Assembly: GCA_028280285.1 (NCBI GenBank)
Contig: JANQMA010000024.1
Span: forward strand, 117-64,116
Source: Candidatus Omnitrophota bacterium
GTDB lineage: Bacteria > Omnitrophota > Gorgyraeia > Zapsychrales > Zapsychraceae
Length of the DNA: 64,000 nucleotides
Direction: 5' to 3'
Part shown: positions 3,161 through 19,564 of the stretch, piece after piece
How the letters are laid out: the number at the start of each line of letters is the position of its first letter
How positions within the stretch are numbered: the stretch's first letter is position 1
Made by a program: the position numbers and the translations under genes
The notes under the pieces: generated by a model
What the model was told of the DNA's origin: nothing
What the model saw: only the letters and a program-made list of their open reading frames with translations
Database searches by the model: none

Positions 3161-3213
3161 CCCTAAGAAGTAAAATTCCATATAAGTTGTACGCTTATTT
3201 ATTGGCAGAAAGT

Positions 3214-3286
3214 ACCCCTATAGCTTAATTGGATAAAGCCCACTCTGGCGATGTTGGAGATGTGAGTTCGAGTCTCACTAGGGGTA
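3214..3286 (+). tRNA. tRNA gene with a clear cloverleaf: acceptor ACCCCTA/TAGGGGT, D-arm GCTT-AATTGGATA-AAGC, T-arm GTGAG-TTCGAGT-CTCAC. The anticodon arm pairs poorly when folded by hand, so the isotype is unresolved (possible GGC loop CTGGCGA)
   Basis: Manual fold. Conserved U8, A14, G18G19, A21 and the T-loop TTCGAGT are present. No CCA is encoded. The anticodon stem has only 3 of 5 pairs in the best register. Confidence 0.55.
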
Positions 3287-3380
3287 TAGTTTTTTCTGTC
3301 TACTTCGGGAAAGGGCCAGAGCTTTCCCGGAACAATATTTTCTTGAAAAATTATTTAGAATAGATATACTTAATATAGTC

Positions 3381-3687: not shown

Positions 3688-4923
3688 ATGAATACTAATG
3701 AAAACATAGAAAAAGAATTTATTAATAAACGGTATCTAAGTAAAGAGGAAGTAGGATACCGTGTACCAAATAATCTCTCGCTGGAGGATTATTGGGGAAG
3801 CATCCAGAAGGCTCGACATCAGCGTGCTGTAAAAATGCCGTTTGAAGATCAGGAAAAGCATCCATTTTGGTTTGTACTAACTTCTTCTTTGCAGCAAAGT
3901 CTTCATGAGATTGATTCTTTAGGCAGAGACTCTATATATCGGTTGGTAAGAGAAGAAATTGAATCAGAAATGATTCAAGATTCATTAATGGAAGAGGCTG
4001 TCTTTTCCAGCGCTATTGAAGGCGCATTTTCCACGGTTAAACGCCTTAAGGAAATGGTGAATAAAAAACAAAGCCCGGAGGATATTAATGACAAGATGGT
4101 GTTTAATAATTATGAAGCCATGCAGTTTATTCTTAGAGAAAAACATAGAAATTTAGATATTGATCTTATTTTAGAACTACAAAAGATTGTCACAAAAGAT
4201 ACTATGGGCGAGGATGATGCAGCCTACTCCGGAAAATTTCGAGACGATTGGGTATACGTTAAAGACAAAAGAGACAGAGTGATTTATACTCCCCCCCATG
4301 CTGATCAAGTTTTACCTGCTATGGAAAAACTTGTTCAATGGATTAATCAGGAAAATGACGACGAATTTATTCACCCTATTATTAAAGCCGCATTTGTACA
4401 TCTTTACTTTGTCCATATTCACCCATTTTTTGATGGCAATGGAAGAACAGCGCGTGCGCTATTTTATTTTGATTTGATAAAAAATGAGTACGAATTTTTT
4501 AAATATTTCTCAATATCTGTTGCTGTTCAAAAAGCTAAAGGCAAATATTATAAAGCCATCCGTAATTCTGAAACACATGAAGGAGATTTTACATTTTTCC
4601 TTCTTTACATGGCAAAAACAATTCTTGAGTCTATTCATCTAGTTAAGTCAAGAATTGCACATCATTACCAAAAAGAATTGGTTATACAGCGCTTGAATAA
4701 GGAAGGCGTTTTATTAAATGGGCGACAAGAGAAATTTGTTAAACGTTTTTTTGTGATCGATCAACGGGTCATTACACTCAAGAAGTACCAGAGTTGGTTC
4801 AAAGTGGCTTACGAAACGGCTAGGCGCGATCTGGATGAGCTTTCGAAATGGAAGGTTTTAACGAAAGGAAAGCAAGGCAAGGCCTTCGTCTATCGCCCAA
4901 ATAATGAATTTGGCATTCAGTAA
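3688..4923 (+). CDS. Fic/Doc family protein (AMPylase-type), class II with an internal inhibitory motif
   Basis: Fic motif HPFFDGNGRTARAL. The N-terminal inhibitory helix motif S-x-x-x-E-G (FSSAIEGA) is on the same chain. Confidence 0.85.
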   Translation: MNTNENIEKEFINKRYLSKEEVGYRVPNNLSLEDYWGSIQKARHQRAVKMPFEDQEKHPFWFVLTSSLQQSLHEIDSLGRDSIYRLVREEIESEMIQDSLMEEAVFSSAIEGAFSTVKRLKEMVNKKQSPEDINDKMVFNNYEAMQFILREKHRNLDIDLILELQKIVTKDTMGEDDAAYSGKFRDDWVYVKDKRDRVIYTPPHADQVLPAMEKLVQWINQENDDEFIHPIIKAAFVHLYFVHIHPFFDGNGRTARALFYFDLIKNEYEFFKYFSISVAVQKAKGKYYKAIRNSETHEGDFTFFLLYMAKTILESIHLVKSRIAHHYQKELVIQRLNKEGVLLNGRQEKFVKRFFVIDQRVITLKKYQSWFKVAYETARRDLDELSKWKVLTKGKQGKAFVYRPNNEFGIQ

Positions 4924-5199: not shown

Positions 5200-6069
5200 A
5201 TGATAAACTTTCCTTACACCGACACAAAATTCTCAACCCTTACCAGCTATATCATGGCCTTATGCGCCCGGCGCGTCTATGATGATGACGCGGGTGCCAT
5301 TCAAACATTTTGCACCGACACACTCGGCACCAATCAATTCACATTTTTAAACCAAGGCGCCACCCAAGCCTTTGTGTGTGCGGATACGCGTTTTACCCTC
5401 ATTTGTTTTCGCGGCACGACGGATATTGATGATTGGATGACCAATATCAAGGCCAAGCTCATTGACGCGCCGATCGGCCGCGCGCATAAGGGATTCACCG
5501 AAGGGCTTGATGCCGTCTATCCGCAGATCCTTGATTTTATAAATCACCATGCACCCGCCCGCACACCGCTGTGGTTGTGTGGACACAGCCTAGGTGGTGC
5601 GCTCGCAACTCTCTGTGCGCTGCGTTTGAGGCTTAAACGCACAAACATTTGCGGGCTCTATACATTTGGCTCCCCGCGTGTGGTAGACGCAAACGCCGGC
5701 GATTATCTCGCGAGCGTCCTGCCGAACCGCATCTGGCGTTTTGTGAACAATGAAGACATCGTCACCCGTGTGCCGCCGGCATCCATGGGGTATGATCACC
5801 TCGGGCGCATCCGTTATTTTGATAATACAGGCGTGATGCACAAACACATGAGCTACTGGCGCCGGTTTAAAGATCGGGTGAACAGCATCGAGATGCGCGC
5901 CCGCGAGCGCTACCGTGTGCTCCGCCACAACTATCCCGACGGCGTGGCCGACCACAGCATGGACCGCTATATCGACCGCATTGTGCAGAACATGACCACG
6001 GATGAAAAATCCCAGGCCGCCCTCGCCCCCACGCAAGCCGGGGAGTTTTTGGAGTTTGTGAATGGGTGA
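5200..6069 (+). CDS. Class 3 lipase / alpha-beta hydrolase (Lipase_3 family)
   Basis: Nucleophile elbow CGHSLGGALATLCA. The gene is conspicuously GC-rich compared with its neighbours. Confidence 0.75.
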   Translation: MINFPYTDTKFSTLTSYIMALCARRVYDDDAGAIQTFCTDTLGTNQFTFLNQGATQAFVCADTRFTLICFRGTTDIDDWMTNIKAKLIDAPIGRAHKGFTEGLDAVYPQILDFINHHAPARTPLWLCGHSLGGALATLCALRLRLKRTNICGLYTFGSPRVVDANAGDYLASVLPNRIWRFVNNEDIVTRVPPASMGYDHLGRIRYFDNTGVMHKHMSYWRRFKDRVNSIEMRARERYRVLRHNYPDGVADHSMDRYIDRIVQNMTTDEKSQAALAPTQAGEFLEFVNG

Positions 6070-6129
6070 GGGGAATGTTCAATTAAATATACGAAGCCTC
6101 TTATTATTTAAAAAGAATAAAATTCTCTA

Positions 6130-6582
6130 ATGAAATTATCTTGGAAAAATTTTGTAGATATAACGACAATTATTTGGTTAATTATTTTTTTTGTTGGTTT
6201 TTACACAAACGAAAATGTTCAACGCATCTGTCTTATTTTTAATACTATTATTCTTTTTGTTTTTCTTTTAGATTTAATTTTCATTTATCGAAAATTTGGC
6301 CGTAAAAGAGATTTTATTAAAAATCATTGGTTTGATGTTATGATGATTATTCCATATTTTCGTATTTTTCGCATTGTTCGTAGTTTGAAGTTTTTAAAAG
6401 TGTTGAACAAATTAAAAGTGTTTAAATTTATTAAAAAATCTCGTATTTTAAGAGGAACTTGGATTGCGCATGAGGTTTCTGATTTAGGACGAACAATTAG
6501 GCAAAGATTTGGAAAACACAATTCTAATTTAAATAGTAATAAAATCTTTAGAGAAAGGAAACGACATGGCAGTAATACCTAA
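6130..6582 (+). CDS. Voltage-sensor-domain-like membrane protein (ion_trans S1-S4 only, no pore domain)
   Basis: Four TM segments. The S3-like segment NHWFDVMMIIPYF resembles the Kv S3 N-x-ID-x-AIIPYF. The S4-like segment RIFRIVRSLKFLKVLNKLKVFKF has a basic residue every third position. The C-terminal tail is basic. The 3' end overlaps the next gene by 17 nt. Confidence 0.55.
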   Translation: MKLSWKNFVDITTIIWLIIFFVGFYTNENVQRICLIFNTIILFVFLLDLIFIYRKFGRKRDFIKNHWFDVMMIIPYFRIFRIVRSLKFLKVLNKLKVFKFIKKSRILRGTWIAHEVSDLGRTIRQRFGKHNSNLNSNKIFRERKRHGSNT

Positions 6583-7378
6583 GAAAATAGTCGAACGTTT
6601 TACGAAGAATATTGTAAAATATCAGCGAGTTTTAAAGACGGCAAAAGATCAGGATGTTAACGAGACTGATACAGTTGCAATAATAAATGACATATTTTCA
6701 GATGTTTTTGGATATGATAAATATACAGAAATTACGAGTGAACTTTCAATTAGAGGGACGTTTTGTGATTTAGCTGTCAAGATCGATGACAAGTTTGCTT
6801 ATCTTATCGAGTGTAAAGCAATTGGACTTGATTTAAAAGATAACCACCTTAGACAGGCTGTTAATTATGGGGTAAATAAAGGAATTCAGTGGATTATTCT
6901 AACAAATGGTCATTTATGGAATTTGTATTATATTCGTTTCGAAAAACCTGTGACGCATGATTTGGTGGTTAGTATTGATTTGTTGAATATGAAACCAAAA
7001 GATAAAAAGACGATTGAGGATCTTTATTTGTTTTCTAAGGAGGGTTTAAATCGAAGTGTGCGAGAGGATTATTATGATAAAGTTAAGAGTGTGAACCGTT
7101 TCATTGTTGGTAATTTATTGTTGAGCGAGCCTGTTGTTAATATTGTACGTAAAGAGCTTAGAAAACTTGCAGAGGGAGTCAAAATTGAGCCGAATGAAAT
7201 ATTGGATATTATTCAAAGAGGTGTTTTAAAAAGAGATATTTTTGACGGTGAAGAGGCAAAAGAAGCCCAATCCAGGCTAAAAAAGTTTTTTAAGAAAAAT
7301 ACTCGGAAAAAGGTTAAAACGAAAACCAAAACTATTTCTCAAAAGTCATCCGAACCAGTGATGCAAGATGTCGAATAA
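6566..7378 (+). CDS. HsdR-N-terminal-like PD-(D/E)xK nuclease domain protein with a Lys-rich tail
   Basis: FCDLAV ... YLIECKA ... QWIILTNGHLWNLYY matches the type I restriction HsdR_N signature (D ... ExK ... lTNG). The tail KKNTRKKVKTKTKT is basic. Confidence 0.65.
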   Translation: MAVIPKKIVERFTKNIVKYQRVLKTAKDQDVNETDTVAIINDIFSDVFGYDKYTEITSELSIRGTFCDLAVKIDDKFAYLIECKAIGLDLKDNHLRQAVNYGVNKGIQWIILTNGHLWNLYYIRFEKPVTHDLVVSIDLLNMKPKDKKTIEDLYLFSKEGLNRSVREDYYDKVKSVNRFIVGNLLLSEPVVNIVRKELRKLAEGVKIEPNEILDIIQRGVLKRDIFDGEEAKEAQSRLKKFFKKNTRKKVKTKTKTISQKSSEPVMQDVE

Positions 7379-7446
7379 ATAATATCATTTTGAACTTGTC
7401 TCGATAAAATGGACACTATTTTTAGAAAAAGAAATAATTTATTTGT

Positions 7447-10400
7447 ATGGAAGATATTGATTTAGCTAACTATATAAAATACTGCCTTGGTTATGTAAAA
7501 CTAACTCAACGTAGGACCTTTGTCTCCCAACAAAGATACTCAACGAATCTACCTAGTGAATACTTTGGTTTAATAGGATTATTAAATTTAGATTTAGATG
7601 GAAAATTAAGTGAGCTCATTAATTTTGAGACATTTTATTCAAATGATCCTAAGAATTTGTCAGAGGAAATTAAAGAAAAATACGAATTCGAGAAAAATCT
7701 AGCAAAAATTATTGACGATATTTATAACAAACATAAAAATGATCAGTTTACTAAACAAATTGTTCTCAACTTTGGGTATTTTGAAATAGAAATGCCTGTT
7801 GAGATTCTAGATGAAGAAGTGGAAAAGGGGGAGGGGGAAGAAAATTTAGAGGTAGAAGTTCAGGTCGATAGATATCCATTGTTTTCTGTTCCAGTAAGAA
7901 TTGAAAAAGAACTTAGTGAAGGGGTTCCACAATATTACGTCTATACCGTAGATCCAGAAATTCACATTAATGTAGGAATGTTAGAGTCTGTATTAGACAA
8001 TGACTTATACTACCAATTGGTAGAAAAGTTGGGAGAATATGAGAATAATGAAAAGCTAATTCTCCCTATCACTGAAGATGCGATATTTGTAGAAATATGG
8101 CATTTAATCAAAGCTCAGTTAAAATTAAAAGATGTAGCATTCGATGAAAAGTCTTTCAAATTAGAAGAAATACACATTTCTTTAGGGGCAAGATCAAATT
8201 ACTTCTTAGCAGAAGATTTACATAAATTGTCGAAGCTTAAAGAAAAAGATTTGTCTGGTACTTCTTTGACAAGTTGGACAAATAATGAAGGGTTAAGTGC
8301 AGAATCTAATATTCCAGGAGAAAAAGAATTATACTTTCCATTCTTATACGATAAGTTTCAACTAAGGGTTCTTAAGGTCATCAATAATAAAGCATCTGTA
8401 ATACAAGGGCCGCCTGGTACTGGAAAATCAGAAACAATATCAAATTTGCTTTGTCATTTAGCTGCTAATGGCAAGAAAGTTTTATTTGTAAGCCAAAAGG
8501 CACAGGCTTTAAAGGTAGTAAAAGATAAACTCAAGAAGTTAGATATACCATATTTGTTTGGTTACCTACCCAACCCCGCTTCAGCGCAATTAAATGAAAT
8601 TGATGAAGAGGATGGAATAGCTATTCAGCTAACTGCATTGGGTTCTTTAATCGAAAAAATGAGTTATGAAAATCAAAAAAATAATAGCTCTAATAAGTCA
8701 TTAGATAGTGTTGTTAAGAAGAAGCAAGGAGTTCAAAGCGGTTTTATTGATGGGATTGAGTGCGAAAGAAAAGTTTTTAATTTGATGGGGGAGTTGAATG
8801 CTCTTAAAGAATATGATTTGGAATTGGTAAATTTAGCTGATTTTAGTCTTAACTTTTCAAAAGACGAGAGAGATTTTATTAGAGGATTAATTTTTGATAT
8901 TAATAGAGTTGAGGATCAAATTTCTCAATATAATTCATCAACCAATGAGAATAGCTATAGAGATTTATTTAGTACTGTGGATTTTAGCGCTCAAAAATAT
9001 TTTGATGTTTTGGAGAAATTTAAAGAGGACTATTCTAAATCTGGGTATGATCGAAATAATAAAATTATACGAAAATGTAATAACTTTATAAGAAATTTTC
9101 GTCTGGGTAAGCAAAGGTCAAAATTACCAAGGGAAATAGTGAATTATATTGATAGCTTGGTTAATGATGATATCTCAAAAAGCGTTGGGCTTAAGAAATT
9201 AAGCGACCTTTCTGAGTATATTCTTTTTTGTGAAAATAATTTTTTAAATGAGGATTTGAATAAAAAATTAATAAATGCATGCTCCAAAAACGGTATTAAT
9301 TTAGAATTGCTTGATAAAATGGATGCTTTTGTTGAAAGCACAAAGGCTAGAGATGTTGATCAGGTTAAAGAAAGGATATTAAAGGTTAGTGCTTTAAGAA
9401 ATGAAATTGATGATTTAAAAAAAGACAATGATTTAGATTTAAATAGATACTCTAGTGATATGCAAAATATACATAATGACCGAAGTAAGAGAATTGCACT
9501 TTATTTGAAGAATATTATTAATAAAGATCTTATGAATAGTTGGAAAGGCAGTGTCTCCGTCAAGCAAATAATTACAAAATTAGCTAAAGCATTTGGCAAG
9601 TCTAAGAAAGCGTTTAAAACGTTTGATAAATTGAGAAATGATCCAAATAACTTCAAAACGATCCTTAACTTAATACCAATTTGGACTATGGAATTAGACG
9701 ATGCAAGTCGAATTGTTCCTTTGGAGGCAAATTTATTTGACTATGTAGTATTAGATGAGGCTTCACAATGTAATATTGCGTATACTTTGCCAGTAATGTT
9801 TAGAGCTGGTAAGGCCGTATTTGTAGGAGATAGTGAACAGATGCGTGATAGTACTATAATGTTTAAATCTAATAGATCTTTTGACGAGCTAGCAAAAAGA
9901 TACAAAATTCCTGAAGAGTTACAAATAAAGTCAACGGGCTCAGCAGTTCAGTCTATCTTAGATATTGCAACATCAAGAGGGTTTTGGTCAACGCCTCTGA
10001 GATTTCATTATAGATCGCCAAGCGAGTTGATAGGTTTTAGTAATAAATCATTTTATAAACCTAAAGGAAAAGAATTAATTCCTTTGAACAATAGTTATTT
10101 GGCATATAAAGATACTAATAGAGTGATGCTTACTCATAGGATCAAACCTGATTGGAATAAAGAAATTTCCGAAAAAGTAAATGTTGCAGAAGCTAAAGCT
10201 ATTCTTGAGTTCTTTAAGGAAATAAAAAAAGATGACTATCTTAAAGATAAGTCTGTAGGAATATTATCATTTTTTAATTCTCAAGCTACGTATATTCGAG
10301 AGTTGTTTGAGAAAGAGGGGTTTAAAGAAGATGAGAATAATTATAAAGTAAGTATTATTGAAGGTATTCAAGGAGACGAAAAGGATATAATTATTTATTC

Positions 10401-10983
10401 ATTTGTAATTAAATCGCCAGATCAAAAGAATAAATACTACCCTCTAACAGGGGAAGGGGGGGATATACGAGGTGATATAAATCGTGGACGAGTAAACGTT
10501 GCGTTTTCAAGAGCGCGATTGCAGGTTCACTGTTTTACGAGTTTAGATGTAAATGATATGCCAGATAAAATTTGGTTAAAGAAATATCTCGAATATGTTG
10601 AGAAACAAGGTAAGGTCGACTTTTATTCAACAGAATTAAAACCATTTGATTCCAATTTTGAGAAAGAATTTTATGGTTTTACTAGAGAAAAGCTAGATCA
10701 GAATTATTTAATTCAGAATCAAGTAAAAAGTTGTGGTTTCAAGATAGACTTTGTAATTACAAATTCTAGTACAGGGAAAAGAATTGCAGTTGAATGTGAC
10801 GGACCTACTCATTTCAAGAATGAATTGGATGAAGAGCTTGATATTTATGTAGATAGTGATGAAGAAAGACAAAGAGTTTTGGAAGCAGCGGGATGGAGAT
10901 TTTATAGGTTGAAGTATTCAGACTGGATTAATCCTGATTTTAAAAAAAACAAATATATTGAGGAAATGAAAGCATTGCTTTAG
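7447..10983 (+). CDS. Superfamily-1 (Upf1/DNA2-like, AAA_11/AAA_12) helicase with an N-terminal DUF4011-like region and a C-terminal DUF559 (Vsr-like PD-(D/E)xK) endonuclease domain
   Basis: Walker A is GPPGTGKSETISNLL. Helicase motifs are VLDEASQ and the RNVAFSRAR-like GRVNVAFSRAR. The C-terminus FKIDFVITNSSTGKRIAVECDGPTHF ... AAGWRFYRL is DUF559-type. Confidence 0.8.
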   Translation: MEDIDLANYIKYCLGYVKLTQRRTFVSQQRYSTNLPSEYFGLIGLLNLDLDGKLSELINFETFYSNDPKNLSEEIKEKYEFEKNLAKIIDDIYNKHKNDQFTKQIVLNFGYFEIEMPVEILDEEVEKGEGEENLEVEVQVDRYPLFSVPVRIEKELSEGVPQYYVYTVDPEIHINVGMLESVLDNDLYYQLVEKLGEYENNEKLILPITEDAIFVEIWHLIKAQLKLKDVAFDEKSFKLEEIHISLGARSNYFLAEDLHKLSKLKEKDLSGTSLTSWTNNEGLSAESNIPGEKELYFPFLYDKFQLRVLKVINNKASVIQGPPGTGKSETISNLLCHLAANGKKVLFVSQKAQALKVVKDKLKKLDIPYLFGYLPNPASAQLNEIDEEDGIAIQLTALGSLIEKMSYENQKNNSSNKSLDSVVKKKQGVQSGFIDGIECERKVFNLMGELNALKEYDLELVNLADFSLNFSKDERDFIRGLIFDINRVEDQISQYNSSTNENSYRDLFSTVDFSAQKYFDVLEKFKEDYSKSGYDRNNKIIRKCNNFIRNFRLGKQRSKLPREIVNYIDSLVNDDISKSVGLKKLSDLSEYILFCENNFLNEDLNKKLINACSKNGINLELLDKMDAFVESTKARDVDQVKERILKVSALRNEIDDLKKDNDLDLNRYSSDMQNIHNDRSKRIALYLKNIINKDLMNSWKGSVSVKQIITKLAKAFGKSKKAFKTFDKLRNDPNNFKTILNLIPIWTMELDDASRIVPLEANLFDYVVLDEASQCNIAYTLPVMFRAGKAVFVGDSEQMRDSTIMFKSNRSFDELAKRYKIPEELQIKSTGSAVQSILDIATSRGFWSTPLRFHYRSPSELIGFSNKSFYKPKGKELIPLNNSYLAYKDTNRVMLTHRIKPDWNKEISEKVNVAEAKAILEFFKEIKKDDYLKDKSVGILSFFNSQATYIRELFEKEGFKEDENNYKVSIIEGIQGDEKDIIIYSFVIKSPDQKNKYYPLTGEGGDIRGDINRGRVNVAFSRARLQVHCFTSLDVNDMPDKIWLKKYLEYVEKQGKVDFYSTELKPFDSNFEKEFYGFTREKLDQNYLIQNQVKSCGFKIDFVITNSSTGKRIAVECDGPTHFKNELDEELDIYVDSDEERQRVLEAAGWRFYRLKYSDWINPDFKKNKYIEEMKALL

Positions 10984-11027
10984 AGTTTTTTGCAATTACT
11001 TATGAGATGATTCTTAGATGAATCTGG

Positions 11028-11038
11028 GTTCTGACATC
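11028..11038. repeat. Partial REP family 2 copy (GTTCTGACATC), right half only. It resembles 19598-19637
   Basis: tatgagatgattcttagatgaatctgggttctgacatcatttt versus tatgagataattcttacataaatctgttctgacaccattt. Confidence 0.5.
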
Positions 11039-11045
11039 ATTTTTT

Positions 11046-11567
11046 ATGGATTCCTATTTTTTAAAAGAAAGTATTTTGCTTATTATTGCAGGATGTATTG
11101 GGTATTTTTCTGCGATAAGAGTACAAGATAGAGAAAGAAATTGCAATTTTAGGAATATGATTAAGATTCTGTATGGTGAGATGGAGAGTGCATATAGAAT
11201 TTTGTTTATTGGTGATAATCAAATTTATTCTGGAGATTTAAGAAATATTTTGATGAATTATAGAAAATTTAACTTAAGAAATTATGAGGCTATTCTTCCA
11301 GAAATCATTGGGCATAAATATTTTGAAAGAAATTGCGGATTTTTTAAAAAAATAGATTATATCTATTTATTATTAGATGAGATAAATGATCGGATAAATG
11401 CAATGATTCCTTATAAGGATGACTTAAATAATTATTGCGTAGATCATAAAAAGTTAATAGATTTAATGGATGAGGTTCGTCATTATTATTCTAAAGATAT
11501 AACACATAGCTCTAATGCTAAATTTGAGGAAACAGAATTATACAAAGGTTTTAAATCACTTTTTTAA
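11046..11567 (+). CDS. Hypothetical protein with an N-terminal TM anchor, in the AT-rich module
   Basis: An ORF with TM helix ILLIIAGCIGYFSAI and no recognisable domain. There is no clear RBS. Confidence 0.4.
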   Translation: MDSYFLKESILLIIAGCIGYFSAIRVQDRERNCNFRNMIKILYGEMESAYRILFIGDNQIYSGDLRNILMNYRKFNLRNYEAILPEIIGHKYFERNCGFFKKIDYIYLLLDEINDRINAMIPYKDDLNNYCVDHKKLIDLMDEVRHYYSKDITHSSNAKFEETELYKGFKSLF

Positions 11568-11618
11568 TTAGTAACAATTAATAAATATCTAGATACGAAT
11601 TCTATTTTTTGATTTGAA

Positions 11619-11846
11619 TTAATAATTAAGAAGTTTGGAAGGGGTTGTCTTCAGGGCTTTTGCTATTTTGAATAAAACTTGAAGTGATGGAAGGTCAGCT
11701 TGAGAGGTCATTTCCAGTCTTTGCCAATATTTATATGTAATTCCTGCCTTTTCCGCAGCTTGTTCCTGCGTCAATCCTAACTTGCCACGGTAATCCTTAA
11801 CATTTTTGACAAGAATACGTTTAATTTTCTTTTGTGCATTTGTCAT
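11619..11846 (-). CDS. XRE-family HTH transcriptional regulator
   Basis: HTH_XRE motif LGLTQEQAAEKAGITYKYWQRLE. Confidence 0.8.
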   Translation of the reverse strand: MTNAQKKIKRILVKNVKDYRGKLGLTQEQAAEKAGITYKYWQRLEMTSQADLPSLQVLFKIAKALKTTPSKLLNY

Positions 11847-11924
11847 AAGTTTATTATGTAATAAAATACCTTAGCGGTACACTCAGGATAAGGTATGTAA
11901 TATTTCTTTACATATCTTATAGGT

Positions 11925-12125
11925 ATGCATATAATATTGAGCATGAAGGCCGAAAGAGAGGCTATCGCCGATATTAAGAATGCGCTGCAGCATCCCCAAA
12001 CGATTTTGGAAATCATGAAAGATAAGAGGGGTAATCAAAATAAGATTCCGATCGAGGATGTGGATAATGGATTAAAGGCGATTCGCCGGGCGGTCAGGTT
12101 ACTTAATAAATTAGCGAAGTGGTAA
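11925..12125 (+). CDS. Small hypothetical protein (66 aa), divergent from the XRE regulator
   Basis: ORF only. Confidence 0.3.
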   Translation: MHIILSMKAEREAIADIKNALQHPQTILEIMKDKRGNQNKIPIEDVDNGLKAIRRAVRLLNKLAKW

Positions 12126-12595
12126 TGGCAGGAAAGACAAGATACGTGTGGCATAAAATTAGTGCTCTATTTTCATGTAAGAAAGGGGGCGCTCATCAAC
12201 CCCCAAAAGTCATTCTGGTAATCGAAGACAATGACGTCGATATGCGGATTATTGAAAAGAGTCTTAAGGGGCTTAATTGCCGGATTCTCAAAGCCACGGG
12301 CGCGGCCGCCGGGCTTGCCCTGGCGCGCCGTAAAGCCCCTGATCTGATTATCCTCGATTGCCTCTTGCCTGAGATGCGCGGAGAGGAGGTCTGCCGCCGG
12401 CTTAAGACAGATGCCAAGACCAAGTCTATTCCGGTTGTCATTCTGACCGTGCTTGAGAACAATATCCTCGATTGCTATGAGGCCGGCGCCACCAAATACT
12501 TAAGCAAACCCATCACCCCCAAAATCCTCCGCCTCGAGGTCCAGGACGCCCTCGCCAACCCCACCCCGGTGATGGATGACGGGATTGATAAATAG
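12119..12595 (+). CDS. Stand-alone response-regulator receiver (CheY-like) protein. GC-rich gene; the N-terminal start is uncertain
   Basis: KVILVIEDNDVD ... LIILDCLLPEMRGEE ... KPI receiver signature. The stop TAG lies inside a family 1 REP palindrome. Confidence 0.7.
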   Translation: MVMAGKTRYVWHKISALFSCKKGGAHQPPKVILVIEDNDVDMRIIEKSLKGLNCRILKATGAAAGLALARRKAPDLIILDCLLPEMRGEEVCRRLKTDAKTKSIPVVILTVLENNILDCYEAGATKYLSKPITPKILRLEVQDALANPTPVMDDGIDK

Positions 12596-12610
12596 TACCC
12601 GGCACTATTG
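12588..12610. repeat. REP family 1 palindrome (ATAAATAGTACCCGGCACTATTG) overlapping the stop codon of the preceding gene
   Basis: Palindrome arms AATAGTACC/GGCACTATT. The TAG at 12593-12595 is embedded in it. Confidence 0.65.
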
Positions 12611-12675
12611 ATTTCTGCGTGCATTAGTATCACAAACTGTGACACCTTAAAATGAATGGGTTGGAAAAGTTTAAA

Positions 12676-12696
12676 CCGGTCGCAAATTGCGACCGG
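12676..12696. promoter_or_regulatory. Perfect 21-nt palindrome CCGGTCGCAAATTGCGACCGG, copy 1 of 3, upstream of the ORF6N gene. Candidate operator
   Basis: Read directly from the sequence. Related copies lie at 13015-13035 and 13052-13076. Confidence 0.5.
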
Positions 12697-12805: not shown

Positions 12806-13726
12806 ATGTCAACCAAAGTAAATCGATCACATAATAAAAAATTACTCCAAAGCAAGATCTACACCATACGTGGCCTACAGGTCATGTTGGATAGCGATTT
12901 AGCCGAGTTCTATAATGTAGCTGTAAAAAGATTGAATGAACAAGTTAAGAGGAATGTTGACCGGTTTCCGAAAGAGTTTAGATTTCAGATCACCAATAAT
13001 GAATATAATGCTCTAAGGTCGCAATCTGCGACCTTAAAAGAGGGTAAAAACTTGAGGTCGCAAATTGCGACCTCAAGTTCTAAACATGGAGGAAGGAGAT
13101 ACCAGCCATACGTATTTACAGAGCAAGGTGTGGCTATGCTTTCTACCGTGCTTAATAGCGAACAAGCCATAAAAATGAGTGTTCAAATTATCAAAGCATT
13201 CGTAAGTATGCGTAAGTTGATAGCCAATAATGCACTTGTTTTTCAAAGATTGGAGAAAGTTGAACAAAAGCAATTAGCCACAGATGTTAAGCTAGATCAA
13301 GTTTTTGCGGCTATCGAGGCTAAGGACATAAAACCCCAACAAGGTATATTCTTTGATGGGCAGGTTTTTGATGCGTATGTATTTGTGTCGAAACTCATTA
13401 AAAGCGCTAAAAGATCAATCATATTGGTTGATAATTATATTGATGAATCGGTGCTGATGCTGCTTTCTAAAAGAAAAAGCAAGTGTGCTGCCACTATTTA
13501 TACTAAAACTATTTCTAAAAAACTACAGTTGGACTTAAAGAAACATAATGAACAATACTCCCCCATAGAAATTAAATCATTCAAAAATGCCCATGACCGA
13601 TTTTTGATTTTGGATGAAAAGGAAATCTATCATATCGGCGCATCGTTAAAAGATCTGGGTAAAAAATGGTTTGCTTTCTCCAAGTTCGATAAACGAATCT
13701 TGGACGTTTTAAAAAGATTGCGGTGA
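12806..13726 (+). CDS. ORF6N-domain protein (phage-type DNA-binding N-terminal domain) with an uncharacterised C-terminal half
   Basis: N-terminus KIYTIRGLQVMLDSDLAEFYNV ... YQPYVFTEQGVAMLSTVL is typical of ORF6N. The coding region contains two copies of the palindrome at 13015-13035 and 13052-13076, which produce the repeat LRSQSATL / LRSQIATS. Confidence 0.65.
   Translation: MSTKVNRSHNKKLLQSKIYTIRGLQVMLDSDLAEFYNVAVKRLNEQVKRNVDRFPKEFRFQITNNEYNALRSQSATLKEGKNLRSQIATSSSKHGGRRYQPYVFTEQGVAMLSTVLNSEQAIKMSVQIIKAFVSMRKLIANNALVFQRLEKVEQKQLATDVKLDQVFAAIEAKDIKPQQGIFFDGQVFDAYVFVSKLIKSAKRSIILVDNYIDESVLMLLSKRKSKCAATIYTKTISKKLQLDLKKHNEQYSPIEIKSFKNAHDRFLILDEKEIYHIGASLKDLGKKWFAFSKFDKRILDVLKRLR
13015..13076. 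repeat. Two palindromes (AAGGTCGCAATCTGCGACCTT and TTGAGGTCGCAAATTGCGACCTCAA) inside the ORF6N coding sequence
   Basis: The core GGTCGCAAwyTGCGACC also occurs at 12676-12696. Confidence 0.6.
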
Positions 13727-14041: not shown

Positions 14042-14075
14042 AAGAAATACTACCCGGCACTAGTTATTTTCTCTT

Positions 14076-14392: not shown

Positions 14393-14770
14393 ATGAGGTG
14401 CTTAAAGCATAAGTGGTTTGAAAAAGATTTAAAGCGTTATCACTTGGATGATCAATATGTGTGTAATATTTTAGATGATATTTCTGCAGGAAGGGCTGTT
14501 GCGCTTGGAGGAAAAATTTATAAAATCCGTGCGTCACGTAAAGGACACGGCAAAAGCGCGGGTTTTCGCAATATTTTCTTTTGGAAGCGCGATGAATTAA
14601 TTATACTCTATACTATTTTTAGTAAAAATGAACGCGATAATTTAACAGTAAGCGAATTGGAATCTTTAAAAGATTTATCTCGAACATACGATAAATTGAC
14701 AAAAAAAGAAATGGATTTGGTAATTCAAAATAACATTCTAGTGGAGGTTCATGATGATAAAAAAAGGTAG
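14393..14770 (+). CDS. RelE/ParE-superfamily toxin, HigB2-like
   Basis: GGKIYKIRASRKGHGKSAGFRNIFFWKRDELIILYTIFSKNERDNLT resembles the HigB2-type toxin core. It overlaps the next gene by 20 nt. Confidence 0.65.
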   Translation: MRCLKHKWFEKDLKRYHLDDQYVCNILDDISAGRAVALGGKIYKIRASRKGHGKSAGFRNIFFWKRDELIILYTIFSKNERDNLTVSELESLKDLSRTYDKLTKKEMDLVIQNNILVEVHDDKKR

Positions 14771-15077
14771 CACGCATTCTAAAATTATGGATATGGTTGA
14801 GGAAAGTCTTCTTGATTTATCTAAGATTAAAGATGTATCAGTGAGCCTCAAAAAGTTTTATAAGCTCAAATACCCTGAACCAAAACAGTTTAAAAAAGCA
14901 GATATTATCCGTCTTAGAAAAAAGTTAAATGTCAGTCAGGCAGTGCTCGCGCGCGTGCTTAACGCCAGTGAAAGCACGGTGCGCAAGTGGGAAGCCGGGG
15001 ATAAAGAACCGGGCGGCGCTAATTGCCGGTTGCTACAAATTTTAGAAAACAAAGGGCTTCAAGTTTTAAGTAATTAG
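14751..15077 (+). CDS. HTH (XRE-type) antitoxin, HigA2-like
   Basis: LNVSQAVLARVLNASESTVRKWEAGDKEPGGANCRLLQIL is the HTH plus conserved C-terminus of HigA2-type antitoxins. Translationally coupled to the toxin. Confidence 0.65.
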   Translation: MMIKKGSTHSKIMDMVEESLLDLSKIKDVSVSLKKFYKLKYPEPKQFKKADIIRLRKKLNVSQAVLARVLNASESTVRKWEAGDKEPGGANCRLLQILENKGLQVLSN

Positions 15078-15107
15078 CGTCAGGCACTATTTATGTAGGA
15101 GAATATT

Positions 15108-15491: not shown

Positions 15492-17000
15492 ATGATGCCC
15501 ACCAAACTCGAGGAGTTTGTGGGCTTTTTTTTTGGACAAATGCAGACCATTTTAAAAAATTATAAAACCGAAAGCTTTTTTGACGAGATGTTTACCCCCG
15601 ATGGGGACGTGCGCCCGGGCTATCATATCTTCCTCAGCAAGCTGGAGAACATCGGAATCAAAGAGCTACGCCAAAAACATCAAGCAGCCGATAAGGCCTA
15701 CATCTCCATGGGCATCACCTTTAACGTGTATCATGAAGAGGGCACAGGCACCGAACGCACACTCCCCTTTGACATCATTCCCCGCATCATCCCGTTTGAA
15801 GAGTGGCAAATCATCGATCGCGGTTTGATCCAACGCGTGACAGCCATCAATTGTTTTATTCAGGATATTTATAATAAAAAACTGATCCTCAAAGACAAAG
15901 TCATCCCACCGGAAATCATCCAAACATCACCGGGTTACCTGGAGGCTTGCGAAGGCATTCATCCCCCTAAAGGCCGGTGGGCGCATATCAGCGGCATCGA
16001 TATTATCAAACATTCCGACGGACTTTATTATGTATTGGAAGATAATTGCCGCGTGCCGTCGGGGGTATCATACGTGCTGGAAAACCGCGAAATTATGAAA
16101 CGCGCCTTTCCTTTGGTCTTTGAGCAGATGCATGTCCGGCCGATCTATGATTATCCGATTAAGCTCTTGGAAATGCTCGATTATCTATCGGAAATGCAGG
16201 ACCCGAACATTGTTGTGTTGACCCCGGGGATTTACAATTCGGCTTATTTTGAACATTCCTTTCTCGCCCAGCAAATGGGGGCGGAGCTGGTCGAAGGCCG
16301 CGATTTGGTCGTCGAGAATGATTACTGTTATATGCGCACAACCAAAGGATTAGAGCGGGTCGATGTGATTTACCGGCGGATAGACGATGAATTTTTAGAT
16401 CCTAAGGTTTTTCGCAAGGATTCGGTTTTGGGTGTGCCGGGTTTGTTTAATGCGTTTCGTAAAGGCCATGTGGCGATTGCCAATGCGCCGGGCACCGGTG
16501 TGGCCGACGATAAAGTGATTTATGCCTATATGCCGGACATTATTAAGTATTATCTCCAAGAAGATCCGATTTTGCCCAACGTCCCGACCTATTTGTGCTG
16601 GCGCGACAAAGATTTTAATTATGTCATCAACAATATTCATAAAATGGTTGTCAAAACAGCTAACCAATCAGGCGGCTACGGCATGCTGATGGGACCCTCA
16701 TCCACCGAAGAAGAAAGAAAAACATTTATCAAACAAATCAAAGCCAATAAGCGCAATTATATCGCGCAACCGGTTATGTATTTATCGCGGGTGCCCACCT
16801 TAGTGGGTGATCACTTGGAAGGTCGCCACGTTGATTTAAGGCCGTTTGTGTTATACGGCAATTCTCCGACGGTGATGCCGGGTGGCTTAAGCCGGGTCGC
16901 GTTAAAAAAAGGATCACTCGTCGTTAATTCCTCGCAAGGCGGCGGATCGAAAGATACATGGGTCTTGTCCCAACCCGAAAGTGAGTTGCATTATGCTTAG
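15492..17000 (+). CDS. Circularly permuted ATP-grasp family protein (type 2). An alternative start is at 15540
   Basis: Conserved cpATP-grasp architecture and the N-terminal FDEMF ... RPGY motif. First gene of the 4-gene cpATP-grasp / alpha-E / Anbu / transglutaminase operon. Confidence 0.75.
   Translation: MMPTKLEEFVGFFFGQMQTILKNYKTESFFDEMFTPDGDVRPGYHIFLSKLENIGIKELRQKHQAADKAYISMGITFNVYHEEGTGTERTLPFDIIPRIIPFEEWQIIDRGLIQRVTAINCFIQDIYNKKLILKDKVIPPEIIQTSPGYLEACEGIHPPKGRWAHISGIDIIKHSDGLYYVLEDNCRVPSGVSYVLENREIMKRAFPLVFEQMHVRPIYDYPIKLLEMLDYLSEMQDPNIVVLTPGIYNSAYFEHSFLAQQMGAELVEGRDLVVENDYCYMRTTKGLERVDVIYRRIDDEFLDPKVFRKDSVLGVPGLFNAFRKGHVAIANAPGTGVADDKVIYAYMPDIIKYYLQEDPILPNVPTYLCWRDKDFNYVINNIHKMVVKTANQSGGYGMLMGPSSTEEERKTFIKQIKANKRNYIAQPVMYLSRVPTLVGDHLEGRHVDLRPFVLYGNSPTVMPGGLSRVALKKGSLVVNSSQGGGSKDTWVLSQPESELHYA
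15497..15535 (+). terminator. Strong terminator-like hairpin (GCCCACcAAACTC-gag-GAGTTTGTGGGC) plus T9. It lies either in the leader or inside the first 15 codons of the cpATP-grasp ORF
   Basis: 12-bp stem with one bulge and tttttttt at 15527-15535. An alternative in-frame ATG is at 15540. Confidence 0.5.
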
Positions 17001-17955
17001 CCGCGTTGCCGAATCTATTTATTGGATGAGCCGCTACATAGAACGGGCCGAAAATTATGCACGGTTTATCGATGTCAATCTGTCGCTTATTATGGACTTG
17101 CCTAAAAACATGTCCGAGCAATGGCAGCCGCTCGTGCGCGTTACAGGGGACGATGTGCTGTATGAAACCATTTACGGCAATTTTTCCCGTGATAATGTGA
17201 TTGAATTTTTAACATTCAATAAAAATAATCCCAACTCCATTCTCAGTTGTTTAATCCAGGCCCGTGAAAGCGCGCGGACCATCCGCGAGATCATTTCAAG
17301 CGAGATGTGGCAGCAAATCAATGAACTGTATTTGGCGGTGAAAGACGCCACGCTCACCGAAAACAGCGACCTGTCGGTTTTTTACGCGCAAATCAAAAGC
17401 GGAACGCATTTATTTAACGGCATTATGGACTCGACGCTCATTCACAATGAAGCGTATCATTTTGCCAATTTGGGCCGCTTGCTGGAAAGGGCCGATAAAA
17501 CAGACAGGATTTTGGACATGAAGTATTTTTATTTGCTGCCGCGCATCGAGGATGTCGGAACGACACTCGATTATCTGCAATGGTCGGCGCTGCTTAAGTC
17601 AACTTCGTCCTACGAGGTGTACCGGAAAAAATACGGCAAGATGGATTATCGTCATATCATTGAGTTTCTTATTTTTGACCGCGAGTTTCCGCGCGCCATT
17701 TACTTTTGCCTGCTTGAGTCGGATAAATCACTCCACGCGATCACCAATACGCAACTGGCCACATTTAACAATTATGCCGAAAAGGAAATGGGCAAGATTA
17801 TCTCACAACTCAGTTTTAATGATGTGCAGGACGTGATCAATTATGGGCTTCATGAATACTTGGACGATTTTCAAGTGAAGCTTAATATTTTAAACGAAGA
17901 AATATTTAATACGTTTTTTTCTCAATCGAATCTTTTAAATGGAGTCCGTTTATGA
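16993..17955 (+). CDS. Alpha-E domain protein (DUF403)
   Basis: MLSRVAESIYWMSRYIERAENYARF is the hallmark alpha-E N-terminus. ATGcTTAG overlaps the upstream stop. Confidence 0.8.
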   Translation: MLSRVAESIYWMSRYIERAENYARFIDVNLSLIMDLPKNMSEQWQPLVRVTGDDVLYETIYGNFSRDNVIEFLTFNKNNPNSILSCLIQARESARTIREIISSEMWQQINELYLAVKDATLTENSDLSVFYAQIKSGTHLFNGIMDSTLIHNEAYHFANLGRLLERADKTDRILDMKYFYLLPRIEDVGTTLDYLQWSALLKSTSSYEVYRKKYGKMDYRHIIEFLIFDREFPRAIYFCLLESDKSLHAITNTQLATFNNYAEKEMGKIISQLSFNDVQDVINYGLHEYLDDFQVKLNILNEEIFNTFFSQSNLLNGVRL

Positions 17956-18695
17956 CCTATTGTTTGGGCATTAAAGTGAAGGAGGGCATTGTTGGATTGG
18001 CCGATACGCGCATTTCCTCGGGCAATCAAACGCTGACCGCCAAAAAAGTGATTATTGAACAGCAGACGTCCCAGCATAGTGTGTTTCTGATGACCTCGGG
18101 CCTGCGCGCGTTGCGTGACAAGGCCATGACCTATTTTAATGAAATTATCGAGGAGAGCGGGTTTGAATATAAAAAAATGTATAAGCTCGTCAATGCCTTT
18201 GGCGCGCAAATCCGCCGGGTCAGCCAAGAAGACCGCAAAGCCTTGCAGGAATCCAATTATGATTTTAATATTCACGCGCTGATCGCCGGACAATTGCAGG
18301 ACGACAGCGAGCATAAACTGTTTATGATTTTTCCGGAAGGAAACTGGGTCGAGGTAGGTAAGGCTAATCCTTATTTTATTATCGGCAACACAAGCCACGG
18401 CAAGCCTATTTTAGACAGGGTTCTGCGTTATGAATCGGATTTGAATTTTGCCCTCAAGGTGAGTTTTCTTTCGTTTAATGCAACACAGGTCAGCTCCAAT
18501 GATGTGGACTATCCGATTGATATTATTTTGTATCGGAAGGATAGTTTTTCCATGGTCGAGCAGAGATTAACCCAAGAGCAGATGATGAAATACTCCGGCT
18601 GGTGGCAATCGAAAATTGCCAAAGCCATCGACGAGTTCCCGGAAGATTGGGCCAAAGAACTGATTCAAACCTATCAACAAGTGCAGCAACAGTGA
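17952..18695 (+). CDS. Proteasome-type (Anbu-like) peptidase
   Basis: MTYCLGIKVKEGIVGLADTRISSG has the proteasome beta-subunit-like N-terminal Thr. It sits in the conserved position of the operon and overlaps the upstream stop by 4 nt. Confidence 0.65.
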   Translation: MTYCLGIKVKEGIVGLADTRISSGNQTLTAKKVIIEQQTSQHSVFLMTSGLRALRDKAMTYFNEIIEESGFEYKKMYKLVNAFGAQIRRVSQEDRKALQESNYDFNIHALIAGQLQDDSEHKLFMIFPEGNWVEVGKANPYFIIGNTSHGKPILDRVLRYESDLNFALKVSFLSFNATQVSSNDVDYPIDIILYRKDSFSMVEQRLTQEQMMKYSGWWQSKIAKAIDEFPEDWAKELIQTYQQVQQQ

Positions 18696-18697
18696 CG

Positions 18698-19564
18698 ATG
18701 CAAGTTAAAATCAAACACAACACGCATTATAATTACATGGACACGATTTTTTTAGAGCCGCATACACTGCGGTTATTTTTGCGTCCCGATAATCATATCA
18801 AAGTCATCCGGCATAAGGTGACGGTCGCGCCACGTCCTGAGGGCCGCGCTAACATTGAGCTCCCCGAGGGGGCGCATGCGCTCTTTGTGTGGTTTCAAGG
18901 CATGACCAAAGAGTTGGATATTATCATGGACGCCGTGGTCGAAACGACGCCGTTTAATCCGTTTGATTTTTTAATTTATCCGGCGAGTTGTTTGCGTCTG
19001 CCGCTGGTCTATCCCAATGACTGGAAAAATATTGTCGAGCCGTACAGGGCAGAACAACAACCCGGTTATGAAATCAAAAAATTCGCGACCGATATTGCCC
19101 AGCAAAGCAATTTTGAGACGACGACTTTTTTGGTCAATTTGTGCACCGCGATTTATGAAACATTTACCTATGAAAAGCGCGAGCACGGCAAGCCGCATAA
19201 CCCCGAGGAGACATTAAAATTAAAACGAGGGTCCTGCCGGGATTTTGCGGTGCTGGCTATGGCGGCCTGCCGGGCCATGGGCATTGCGTCGCGCTATGTG
19301 AGCGGATATTATATCAGTGAGTCGAGTGATGAGCCCAGTGATCTGCATGCCTGGCTTGAGGTGTATTTGCCGGGGGCCGGCTGGCGGGGCTTTGACCCGT
19401 CGCATGGGATTGCCTGCGGCCATCTGCATTTGGCCTTGTGTGCGTCGCGCGATCCGCTGATGACCCTGCCCGTTACCGGGGCCTACCGCGGATTTGCCTC
19501 CAGCTTTATGACCACAAAACTCTCCATTGATCTCACCCAGCCTGAAATTGTATCGAAAAATTAG
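18698..19564 (+). CDS. Transglutaminase-like cysteine protease family protein
   Basis: Catalytic Cys motif GSCRDFAVLAMAACRAMG and His motif HAWLEVYLPGAGWRGFDPSHG. The start ATG is 2 nt after the upstream stop. Confidence 0.8.
   Translation: MQVKIKHNTHYNYMDTIFLEPHTLRLFLRPDNHIKVIRHKVTVAPRPEGRANIELPEGAHALFVWFQGMTKELDIIMDAVVETTPFNPFDFLIYPASCLRLPLVYPNDWKNIVEPYRAEQQPGYEIKKFATDIAQQSNFETTTFLVNLCTAIYETFTYEKREHGKPHNPEETLKLKRGSCRDFAVLAMAACRAMGIASRYVSGYYISESSDEPSDLHAWLEVYLPGAGWRGFDPSHGIACGHLHLALCASRDPLMTLPVTGAYRGFASSFMTTKLSIDLTQPEIVSKN

Follow-up and report, generated by a model that had tools for sequence, protein, structure and literature searches.

A predicted pore-less voltage-sensor protein and its restriction-type nuclease neighbour in a tRNA-linked island of a Candidatus Omnitrophota bacterium

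Here we describe four co-directional open reading frames (ORFs), ORF1 to ORF4, in the genome of a Candidatus Omnitrophota bacterium (GenBank assembly GCA_028280285.1, contig JANQMA010000024.1). They lie in a stretch of 64,000 nucleotides (positions 117 to 64,116 of the forward strand), which we refer to as the window and whose numbering is used unless another locus is named. An initial annotation made from the sequence alone had proposed that the four genes jointly form a candidate defence or abortive-infection system. Comparison with other genomes reveals that the four genes do not make up a single conserved defence system. What recurs across phyla is the pairing of a voltage-sensor-family membrane protein with a nuclease of the ORF2 family, a minority state of this nuclease family that appears to be undescribed. 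ORF1 itself appears, as judged from sequence comparison, to belong to a real prokaryotic family of proteins that consist of the voltage-sensor segments S1–S4 without a pore, and this family is apparently undescribed as well. The four genes and the junction between the first two are:

ORF1: 6130–6582, + strand, 150 amino acids (aa), predicted pore-less voltage-sensor-domain (VSD; S1–S4) protein
ORF2: 6566–7378, + strand, 270 aa, HsdR-N-type PD-(D/E)xK protein with a C-terminal helical domain and a lysine-rich tail
ORF1/ORF2 overlap: 6566–6582, + strand, 17 nt, predicted translational coupling
ORF3: 7447–10983, + strand, 1178 aa, Upf1-like superfamily 1 (SF1) helicase with a C-terminal MTES_1575/DUF559 (Vsr-like) nuclease
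ORF4: 11046–11567, + strand, 173 aa, orphan with one predicted N-terminal transmembrane (TM) anchor

Conservation of the gene set and of the nuclease–channel pair

The ORF2 family was sampled at about 130 loci in total, comprising 80 genome loci retrieved with as much as 10 kb of flanking sequence, 45 loci on viral contigs of IMG/VR and five additional look-ups; individual loci carry labels of the form Lnnn. When the four proteins were compared by tblastn with the 80 genome loci, a helicase-nuclease was directly adjacent to the ORF2 homologue only in L034, where a protein of 1443 aa (27% identity) is encoded directly upstream. Two further weak helicase matches lay 5–10 kb from ORF2 homologues, and ORF4 was never found in these loci. 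The 45 viral-contig loci harbored neither a helicase nor an ORF4 homologue, and the Pfam annotations listed for the five look-ups contained no such helicase. ORF1, ORF2 and ORF4 were likewise all missing from the five loci of the ORF3 family. The co-occurrence of the four genes is conserved neither among the ORF2- and ORF3-family loci nor among those of the ORF1 family, and hence the proposal of one system, for which the initial annotation had itself named such a lack of conservation as refuting, does not hold.

The single N-terminal hydrophobic segment of ORF4 (residues 4–26) agrees with the membrane anchor assigned to it before, it matched no Pfam, NCBIfam or PADLOC model, and no homologue was present in the approximately 160 loci retrieved or in plasmids. 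ORF4 forms a singleton cluster and has no detectable link to ORF1–ORF3.

The nuclease ORF2, by contrast with the set as a whole, has a recurrent membrane partner. Among the 147 immediate neighbours of ORF2 homologues (122 families), Ion_trans and HTH_3 tie as the commonest Pfam family with eight members each. An Ion_trans protein is encoded immediately adjacent to the ORF2 homologue in 9 of the 80 genome loci, which belong to at least six phylum-level groups. Within the same loci, Ion_trans-like ORFs account for 9/146 adjacent versus 3/806 non-adjacent ORFs, a 17-fold enrichment (Fisher p = 5e-6). Hidden Markov models (HMMs) built from the neighbours retrieved ten full or remnant 6-TM channels and two pore-less VSD genes from the 80 loci. 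Nine of these are adjacent to the ORF2 homologue and three lie within 4 kb, while none was found beyond 4 kb within the flanks of up to 10 kb.

The channels are small and fall into two subtypes, for which we use our own labels type A and type B. Type A possesses a TTVGYGD filter and a C-terminal CPHCG zinc ribbon and is encoded downstream of the ORF2 homologue in L026, L054, L064 and L069 and upstream of it in L049 and L113, the latter pair having come from an independent look-up. Type B shows an unusual TGEYGD filter, a very short S3–S4 hairpin and a coiled-coil tail, and lies upstream of the ORF2 homologue in L007, L008 and L016, with a remnant in L003. Related channels with a TVGYGD filter are located nearby in L036 and in convergent orientation in the viral contig L151. 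The stop and start codons of channel and ORF2 homologue overlap in L007, L008, L016 and L049, as do those of ORF1 and ORF2 in the window. For the type-B pairs of Kiritimatiellales, Planctomycetota and Hydrogenedentota, the nucleases are 67–70% and the channels 68% identical. Because of this parallel divergence across three phyla, the channel–nuclease unit appears to have been inherited and transferred together. A tblastn search of plasmids with a type-B channel returned only distant generic K+ channels.

The remnant in L003 (9423–9971) consists of the 3′ part of a type-B channel, S6 plus tail, which is joined with a GIY-YIG-like ORF and immediately precedes the nuclease homologue, and this locus looks like a decayed channel–nuclease pair.

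The nearest relatives of ORF2 are found in L001 and L002 from Pontiella (58% identity), followed by that of the type-B-linked locus L007. Both Pontiella loci also contain a pore-less VSD gene of 149 aa, 47% identical to ORF1, two genes downstream of the nuclease. An HMM of the VSD-only proteins matches the type-B channels (E 1e-14 to 1e-17; 5e-12 to 3e-17 when the relative in L036 is included) and not type A, which suggests that ORF1-like proteins arose when type-B-like channels lost their pore. The earlier idea of a nuclease paired with a membrane sensor is retained and strengthened for ORF1 and ORF2, whose type of pair recurs elsewhere, and given up for ORF3 and ORF4. Our literature search for a link of voltage sensors or ion channels to anti-phage systems returned nothing relevant, and we found the channel–nuclease pairing described nowhere.

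As a separate observation, L001 and L002, from a metagenome-assembled genome of Pontiella sp., are nearly identical to each other, and in both of them small ORFs of one orientation form a tightly packed array around the nuclease and VSD-only genes. Ten ORFs of the L001 array were scanned without a Pfam match above curated cut-offs, and the arrays look cassette-like.

The voltage-sensor family of ORF1 and the nuclease family of ORF2

ORF1 had been described as a voltage-sensor domain with four TM segments and no pore. It matches the Pfam profile Ion_trans with 28.5 bits (cut-off 25), as had been expected of it, and the match spans profile positions 4–116 of 241, which correspond to S1–S4 only. 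The pore (S5–P–S6 with the selectivity filter) is absent, as the protein ends 45 residues past S4 and the next gene encodes a soluble protein. When 1.8 billion cluster representatives were searched exhaustively with HMMER, 178 of them proved to be relatives at E ≤ 1e-3, of which 46 also passed E ≤ 1e-10; a word-indexed homologue search with ORF1 returned only ORF1 itself. The relatives are short: 122 of the 149 listed matches have at most 180 aa, the median for the 46 best is 133 aa, and stand-alone members typically comprise 110–170 aa. Ion_trans is matched by 25 of 36 family members, and hhalign aligns the family with S1–S4 of the 6-TM channels encoded beside ORF2 homologues at a probability of 97.1% (E 6e-11). 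A profile search of the PDB with the ORF1 family gave nothing at E ≤ 0.01, the best matches being weak ones to the voltage sensors of NavRh, NaChBac and Kv1.x (E 0.03–0.4).

The family alignment reveals W16, W67, P75 and R78 as invariant and F45/D48 in S2 and D69 in S3 as nearly invariant, the latter three of which we take to be the charge-transfer-centre positions of Kv channels. The S3 motif DxxxxIPYF resembles S3 of the Shaker K+ channel. In S4, basic residues occupy every third position (R78, R81, R84, K87 and K90), and the family carries R or K at these sites. A C-terminal HExxDLxRTxxxRF motif is common to ORF1 and some family members. Since ORF1 has its length, its S4 and this C-terminal motif in common with its relatives, it does not represent a chance truncation. 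In hydropathy analysis, strong hydrophobicity is confined to S1 and S2, and S3 is very short, with 8 residues between D69 and the first S4 arginine R78; an extremely short S3–S4 connection is also present in the type-B channels. Hence, the four TM segments rest on voltage-sensor homology and not on hydropathy, and it is in this form that the earlier description can be kept. The single-sequence AlphaFold2 (AF2) model of ORF1 is of low confidence, with a predicted local distance difference test score (pLDDT) of 68, a predicted template modelling score (pTM) of 0.38 and S3–S4 drawn as one helix, and Foldseek returned nothing meaningful for it.

When compared to the eukaryotic pore-less proteins Hv1, Ci-VSP and TMEM266, ORF1 resembles them in possessing S1–S4 without S5–P–S6, basic residues at every third position of S4 and acidic and aromatic counter-residues in S2 and S3. 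It differs from them in being prokaryotic, in its very short S3–S4 hairpin and in having no enzyme domain. Hv1 is characterized by the tryptophan of the S4 motif RxWRxxR and by an aspartate in the middle of S1 that forms the selectivity filter (PMC10377628), whereas S4 of ORF1 reads RIFRIVR without a tryptophan and a mid-S1 aspartate is missing, the sole conserved acidic residue of S1, D10, being located at the start of the helix. According to the same 2023 review, every known prokaryotic voltage sensor has a pore domain, and no pore-less VSD or Hv channel is known from bacteria or archaea (PMC10377628). Our own literature search found no description of prokaryotic VSD-only proteins; its coverage was incomplete, so that this is absence of evidence only.

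A metagenome scan with a 13-sequence alignment identified 17 loci of the VSD-only family, in which the neighbours include UvrB, HisRS, an exonuclease and other unrelated genes, and in which no ORF3 homologue was present. ORF1 had no match in plasmids, and the VSD-only family is absent from IMG/VR. In L105 the longest-ORF call (7137–8372) joins a VSD-only gene to an upstream region of 280 aa, while the family member at this place, P0256, comprises 132 aa; the joined ORF is probably an artefact of the longest-ORF call rather than a genuine N-terminal fusion.

The assignment of ORF2 to the HsdR-N-type PD-(D/E)xK proteins is substantiated by a match to HSDR_N_2 of 26.1 bits (cut-off 25) and by the catalytic residues, as E59, D68, E82 and K84 are invariant in 20 sequences of the family. 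The D...(D/E)xK motif is intact and lies on β strands of the AF2 model, which has a pLDDT of 84 and in which an α/β nuclease core precedes a helical domain, the lysine-rich tail being disordered. Foldseek with this model gave weak matches, nearly all to restriction-endonuclease-like folds (DrdV with a probability of 0.94 at E 0.015, TT1808 and HsdR 3h1t) and none at E ≤ 0.001. Homologues align with ORF2 from residue 1 onwards, in support of the start codon at 6566. Owing to its HSDR_N_2 match, D...ExK motif and putative restriction-endonuclease-like core, ORF2 resembles the N-terminal domain of type I HsdR as well as Mrr-like and type IV enzymes (COG4748), and JGI annotates its homologues as predicted type IV restriction endonucleases. 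Unlike a type I R subunit, ORF2 has only 270 aa and no motor or helicase domain, and no ORF at 174–19564 matches HsdM or HsdS; it also differs from the HsdR, Mrr and type IV proteins in its added conserved helical C-terminal domain and lysine-rich tail. A literature search on HSDR_N_2 returned nothing relevant.

More than 2000 homologues of ORF2 were found at 50–59% identity in many phyla. Their hosts include Kiritimatiellota, Planctomycetota, Elusimicrobiota, Zixibacteria, Chloroflexota, Ignavibacteria, Desulfobacterota and other groups, in a patchy distribution that resembles horizontal gene transfer (HGT). The homologues usually stand alone and are often found near CI-like repressors and integrases. 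On the IMG/VR contigs (L115–L156, predicted prophage) they adjoin CI-like repressors, integrases and DNA invertases, which is a lysogeny-module position and a typical setting of exclusion genes borne by prophages and islands. In genomes, repressor-like genes of the XRE (HTH_3) and Peptidase_S24 types are, along with Ion_trans, the most frequent neighbours; genes for TIR_2, NucS_C, Imm_superinfect and HEPN_AbiU2 proteins lie nearby in the extra look-ups, and on Leptospira plasmids the homologues adjoin a PIN/DUF433 pair.

ORF3 and the relation to known systems

ORF3 had been annotated as an SF1 helicase with a DUF559 nuclease. Its helicase part is confirmed by AAA_11 and AAA_12, and its nuclease domain is recognized through MTES_1575 (59 bits), DUF559 itself remaining below the cut-off; Pfam gave no DUF4011 match. 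Full-length homologues of about 1180 aa are 54–59% identical and mostly from Patescibacteria, and with a mean column identity of 74% the family alignment is unusually conserved. The gene stands alone in all five loci inspected, with varying neighbours: YhcG and Fic, housekeeping genes, a PDDEXK_1 gene, a restriction-modification system with RhuM, and serine recombinases. The ORF3 helicase family is absent from IMG/VR. In two of the five loci a large serine recombinase is encoded beside the ORF3-family gene (L085 401–2023 and L166 3618–4958), which hints that the family travels as cargo of mobile elements.

Several known models are related to ORF3. PADLOC PDC-S37 matches with E 2.2e-73 in two stretches, the best of which covers model positions 934–1326 of 1550, and PADLOC Hhe matches with 8e-40. 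The NCBIfam model ProA (NF058533) scores 234 bits against a cut-off of 1500 and covers residues 755–1165 only, and the NCBIfam model Hhe (NF042953) scores 160.6 bits against an equivalog cut-off of 2000. A literature search on ProA returned nothing relevant. Hhe is reportedly the single-gene system of Gao et al. 2020. ORF3 shares with Hhe, ProA and PDC-S37 the order of an Upf1-like SF1 core followed by a C-terminal Vsr/DUF559-type nuclease, and the single-gene state with variable neighbours. However, only the C-terminal third of ORF3 aligns well, its 1178 aa compare with models of 1550–1900 positions, it lacks the DUF4011 match expected of Hhe, and it belongs to a highly conserved family of its own centred on Patescibacteria. 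By these profile matches ORF3 is a relative of the Hhe and ProA families and not a member of them, and it probably stands in the same relation to PDC-S37. The initial annotation knew of no named defence system with this composition; ORF1, ORF2 and ORF4 are covered by no PADLOC model, and ORF3 resembles known single-gene candidates.

Membrane sensors coupled to DNA-targeting effectors are a concept already embodied by Zorya (ZorAB with ZorC/D) and Kiwa (KwaAB). The proteins are unrelated to those described here, as there was no PADLOC Zor or Kwa match and ORF1 is neither MotAB-like nor tetraspanin-like. Another parallel is the Rex paradigm, in which a 4-TM membrane partner acts with a cytoplasmic sensor and membrane depolarisation is the proposed outcome (PMC6426596). 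Lambda RexAB and gp30/gp31 of the mycobacteriophage Sbash resemble ORF1–ORF2 in that a small membrane protein with four TM segments, predicted ones in the case of ORF1, is encoded beside a cytoplasmic partner, and in that ORF2 homologues adjoin CI-like repressors in viral-contig loci. There is, however, no sequence relationship, as ORF2 belongs to HSDR_N_2 and not to DUF4747/RexA, and ORF1 to Ion_trans and not to RexB. Neither protein has a PADLOC Rex match, the Foldseek matches of ORF2 do not include RexA, and most ORF2 homologues have no membrane partner.

Island context, possible function and alternatives

The four genes lie in an AT-rich block close to a tRNA gene, together with further features of the region:

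AT-rich block: 6070–11900, no strand, approximately 30% guanine plus cytosine (GC), strong positive GC skew, contains ORF1–ORF4
XRE-type helix-turn-helix (HTH_3) regulator: 11619–11846, − strand, Pfam HTH_3 1e-9, convergent with the AT-rich block
tRNA-Ala(GGC): 3213–3287, + strand, ARAGORN, anchor of the variable island
Fic/DOC protein with HTH (SoFic-like), independent neighbour module: 3688–4923, + strand, Pfam Fic 8e-21, PADLOC SoFic 8e-52
ORF6N/Rha-like protein, independent neighbour module: 12806–13726, + strand, PADLOC PDC-S05 1.7e-122, Pfam ORF6N 3e-33

This arrangement agrees with the initial annotation, which had placed four co-directional ORFs in an AT-rich block of a tRNA-adjacent mosaic island; the tRNA-Ala anchor, the independent modules and the alternation of GC content are all present. 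GC content amounts to 0.26–0.34 over 6001–12000, compared with 0.47–0.57 just upstream and 0.49 just downstream, the flanking genes on both sides having 0.53–0.54 and the whole window 0.41, and the switch falls at 6069, the stop codon of a lipase gene. For DNA composed like this, the number of + strand ORFs expected by chance is 0.003 at a length of 150 codons and 0.0004 at 173 codons, so that none of ORF1–ORF4 is a chance ORF. The translational coupling proposed for ORF1 and ORF2 is in keeping with their 17-nt overlap and with an AAGGAA-like ribosome-binding site within the 3′ end of ORF1, 6–7 nt 5′ of the ORF2 ATG at 6566. Gaps of 68 nt and 62 nt separate ORF2 from ORF3 and ORF3 from ORF4. 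A promoter/terminator scan found no terminator-like sites on the + strand between ORF1 and ORF4, and its counts for the block were not above shuffled expectation; a promoter-like site with 10/12 matches is present in the gap directly 5′ of ORF3, such sites not being enriched in this AT-rich DNA. No direct or inverted repeats beyond chance AT-rich matches flank 6070–11900, and a reading of the block as an integron cassette was dropped, as attC-type repeats are missing around it.

The variable island spans both sides of the tRNA-Ala gene (174–1172, 1365–2987, 3688–4923, 5200–6069, 12119–12595, 12806–13726 and 14393–15077), and its GC content alternates gene by gene from 0.25 to 0.54. Its cargo comprises a DUF1016_N+SNase fusion, a PLD-like protein, the SoFic-like Fic protein and a GC-rich Lipase_3, and further a GC-rich receiver-only response regulator, the PDC-S05/ORF6N protein and a RelE/HTH toxin-antitoxin pair. 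The nearly palindromic 25-nt sequence AAATAGTACCCGGCACTATTGATTT occurs at 12590–12614, 14045–14069 and 15072–15096, at or just past three stop codons of the island, and could be a terminator, an operator or an element like repetitive extragenic palindromes (REP-like). The 17-nt perfect palindrome GGTCGCAAATTGCGACC is present in three copies (12678–12694, 13017–13033 and 13056–13072), one upstream of the PDC-S05/ORF6N gene and two within it. Directly after the island, 15492–19564 harbors a gene cluster for circularly permuted ATP-grasp, Alpha-E, proteasome-like and transglutaminase proteins.

We consider it likely that the region is a tRNA-Ala-linked island of independent modules, in which ORF3 acts alone, ORF4 is unlinked and ORF1 and ORF2 form a RexAB-like pair. 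This account starts from the gene structure, the homologies, the intact catalytic and S4 motifs, the recurrent adjacency and the parallel divergence, all of which are observed. A physical coupling of ORF1 with ORF2, a defence role and a direction of signalling are what we infer beyond these. ORF3 would be horizontally acquired and self-contained, and would most likely work alone as an ATP-driven translocase that delivers its Vsr-like nuclease to DNA. ORF2 would represent a horizontally mobile nuclease family, a minority of which is operonic with a protein of the voltage-gated-channel family, and its partner in the window, ORF1, would have lost the pore and kept S1–S4. The two could form a two-component abortive-infection or exclusion module that is like RexAB and built from unrelated folds. 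Signals might pass in either direction. The nuclease-fold protein ORF2 may sense invading DNA and open its membrane partner, with K+ efflux through the full channels, or a gating-pore or proton leak through pore-less ORF1, as the outcome. Alternatively, the voltage sensor ORF1 may report the depolarisation at phage DNA entry and license the ORF2 nuclease. Pore-less ORF1 could conduct solely via a gating-pore or proton path, like Hv1; since it possesses neither the S4 tryptophan nor the mid-S1 aspartate of Hv1, a role as a pure sensor is equally plausible. That ORF1 is a prokaryotic pore-less voltage sensor which forms a voltage-coupled immune module with ORF2, the full K+-channel/nuclease pairs being the ancestral form, is a more specific proposal that we regard as rather unlikely.

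Several observations weigh against the modular account with its RexAB-like pair. Some 90% of the ORF2 homologues lack an Ion_trans neighbour; the nuclease accordingly functions on its own, and a membrane partner can be no more than an accessory. The 17 VSD-only metagenome loci, many of them on contigs shorter than 2 kb, contain neither an ORF2 homologue nor a conserved partner, and the presumed link of ORF1 with ORF2 rests on comparative evidence. A defence role for ORF2 would be read from genomic context only, and a conservation of 50–59% identity across phyla is unusual for a defence gene. ORF3 may serve repair instead of immunity, given that its family is very conserved and lies among housekeeping genes in one locus. 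Finally, the uniform GC content of 25–33%, the tight spacing and the missing + strand terminator-like sites make a joint arrival or co-transcription of all four genes possible.

These last features also form the basis of a lineage-specific system in which the membrane sensor ORF1, perhaps with ORF4, controls the nuclease effectors ORF2 and ORF3, newly assembled in this genome or taken from an unsampled AT-rich donor. It would fit the shared orientation of the genes, which are spaced by −17, 68 and 62 nt and are not separated by any terminator-like site on the + strand, their very low GC content throughout, the helicase-nuclease directly upstream of the ORF2 homologue in L034, and the fact that all four proteins are singletons at 90% identity. 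However, there is no second instance in the approximately 130 ORF2-family, 5 helicase and 17 VSD-only loci, the closest relatives differ by lineage (Patescibacteria for ORF3, Kiritimatiellota and related groups for ORF1 and ORF2), and the promoter-like site before ORF3, with the reservation made above, also speaks for a separate unit; we deem such a system quite improbable.

With a low probability, though a higher one than this, ORF1 and ORF2 are not coupled at all. ORF1 would then be either a small membrane protein of the housekeeping type or what is left of a decaying channel, ORF2 a stand-alone nuclease resembling type IV restriction or repair enzymes, and the channel–nuclease adjacency in other genomes a result of co-transfer on islands, as could be argued from the missing channel beside most ORF2 homologues, from the unrelated neighbours of VSD-only genes and from the degraded channel in L003. 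It is difficult to reconcile with this that adjacency exceeds non-adjacent positions of the same loci 17-fold, in both gene orders and with two channel subtypes, that the overlapping stop and start codons and the parallel divergence indicate joint expression and inheritance, and that the length, S4 and C-terminal motif which ORF1 has in common with family members exclude a random truncation. Least probable in our judgement is a service of the pair in ion homeostasis or DNA–membrane physiology, for instance with ORF2 as a regulatory subunit of a K+ channel that reuses the nuclease fold for binding of ligands or nucleic acids. The strong conservation of ORF2, atypical of fast-evolving defence genes, and the bona fide K+-channel-like partners with their TTVGYGD filter would suit such a role, but the family shows no variation in the catalytic residues E59, D68, E82 and K84, its genomic surroundings consist of lysogeny modules, toxin-antitoxin genes, AbiU2, TIR and integrases, and it is distributed across phyla in a patchy, HGT-like manner.

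The four genes are thus best not treated as one unit, and the helicase-nuclease and the ORF1–ORF2 pair are better regarded as separate subjects. ORF3 appears to belong to an already known kind, and what appears to be new is the pairing and the pore-less prokaryotic family, the functions of all these proteins being predicted from sequence. With 46 clusters at E ≤ 1e-10, the stand-alone S1–S4 family of prokaryotes is sizeable, against the view in the literature that a pore is always present. Such pore-less prokaryotic S1–S4 proteins would be minimal models of voltage sensing and relevant to the question of how Hv1 and VSP-type proteins arose. The linkage of a channel family with a restriction-type nuclease across phyla suggests an undescribed tie of membrane potential to nucleic-acid surveillance.

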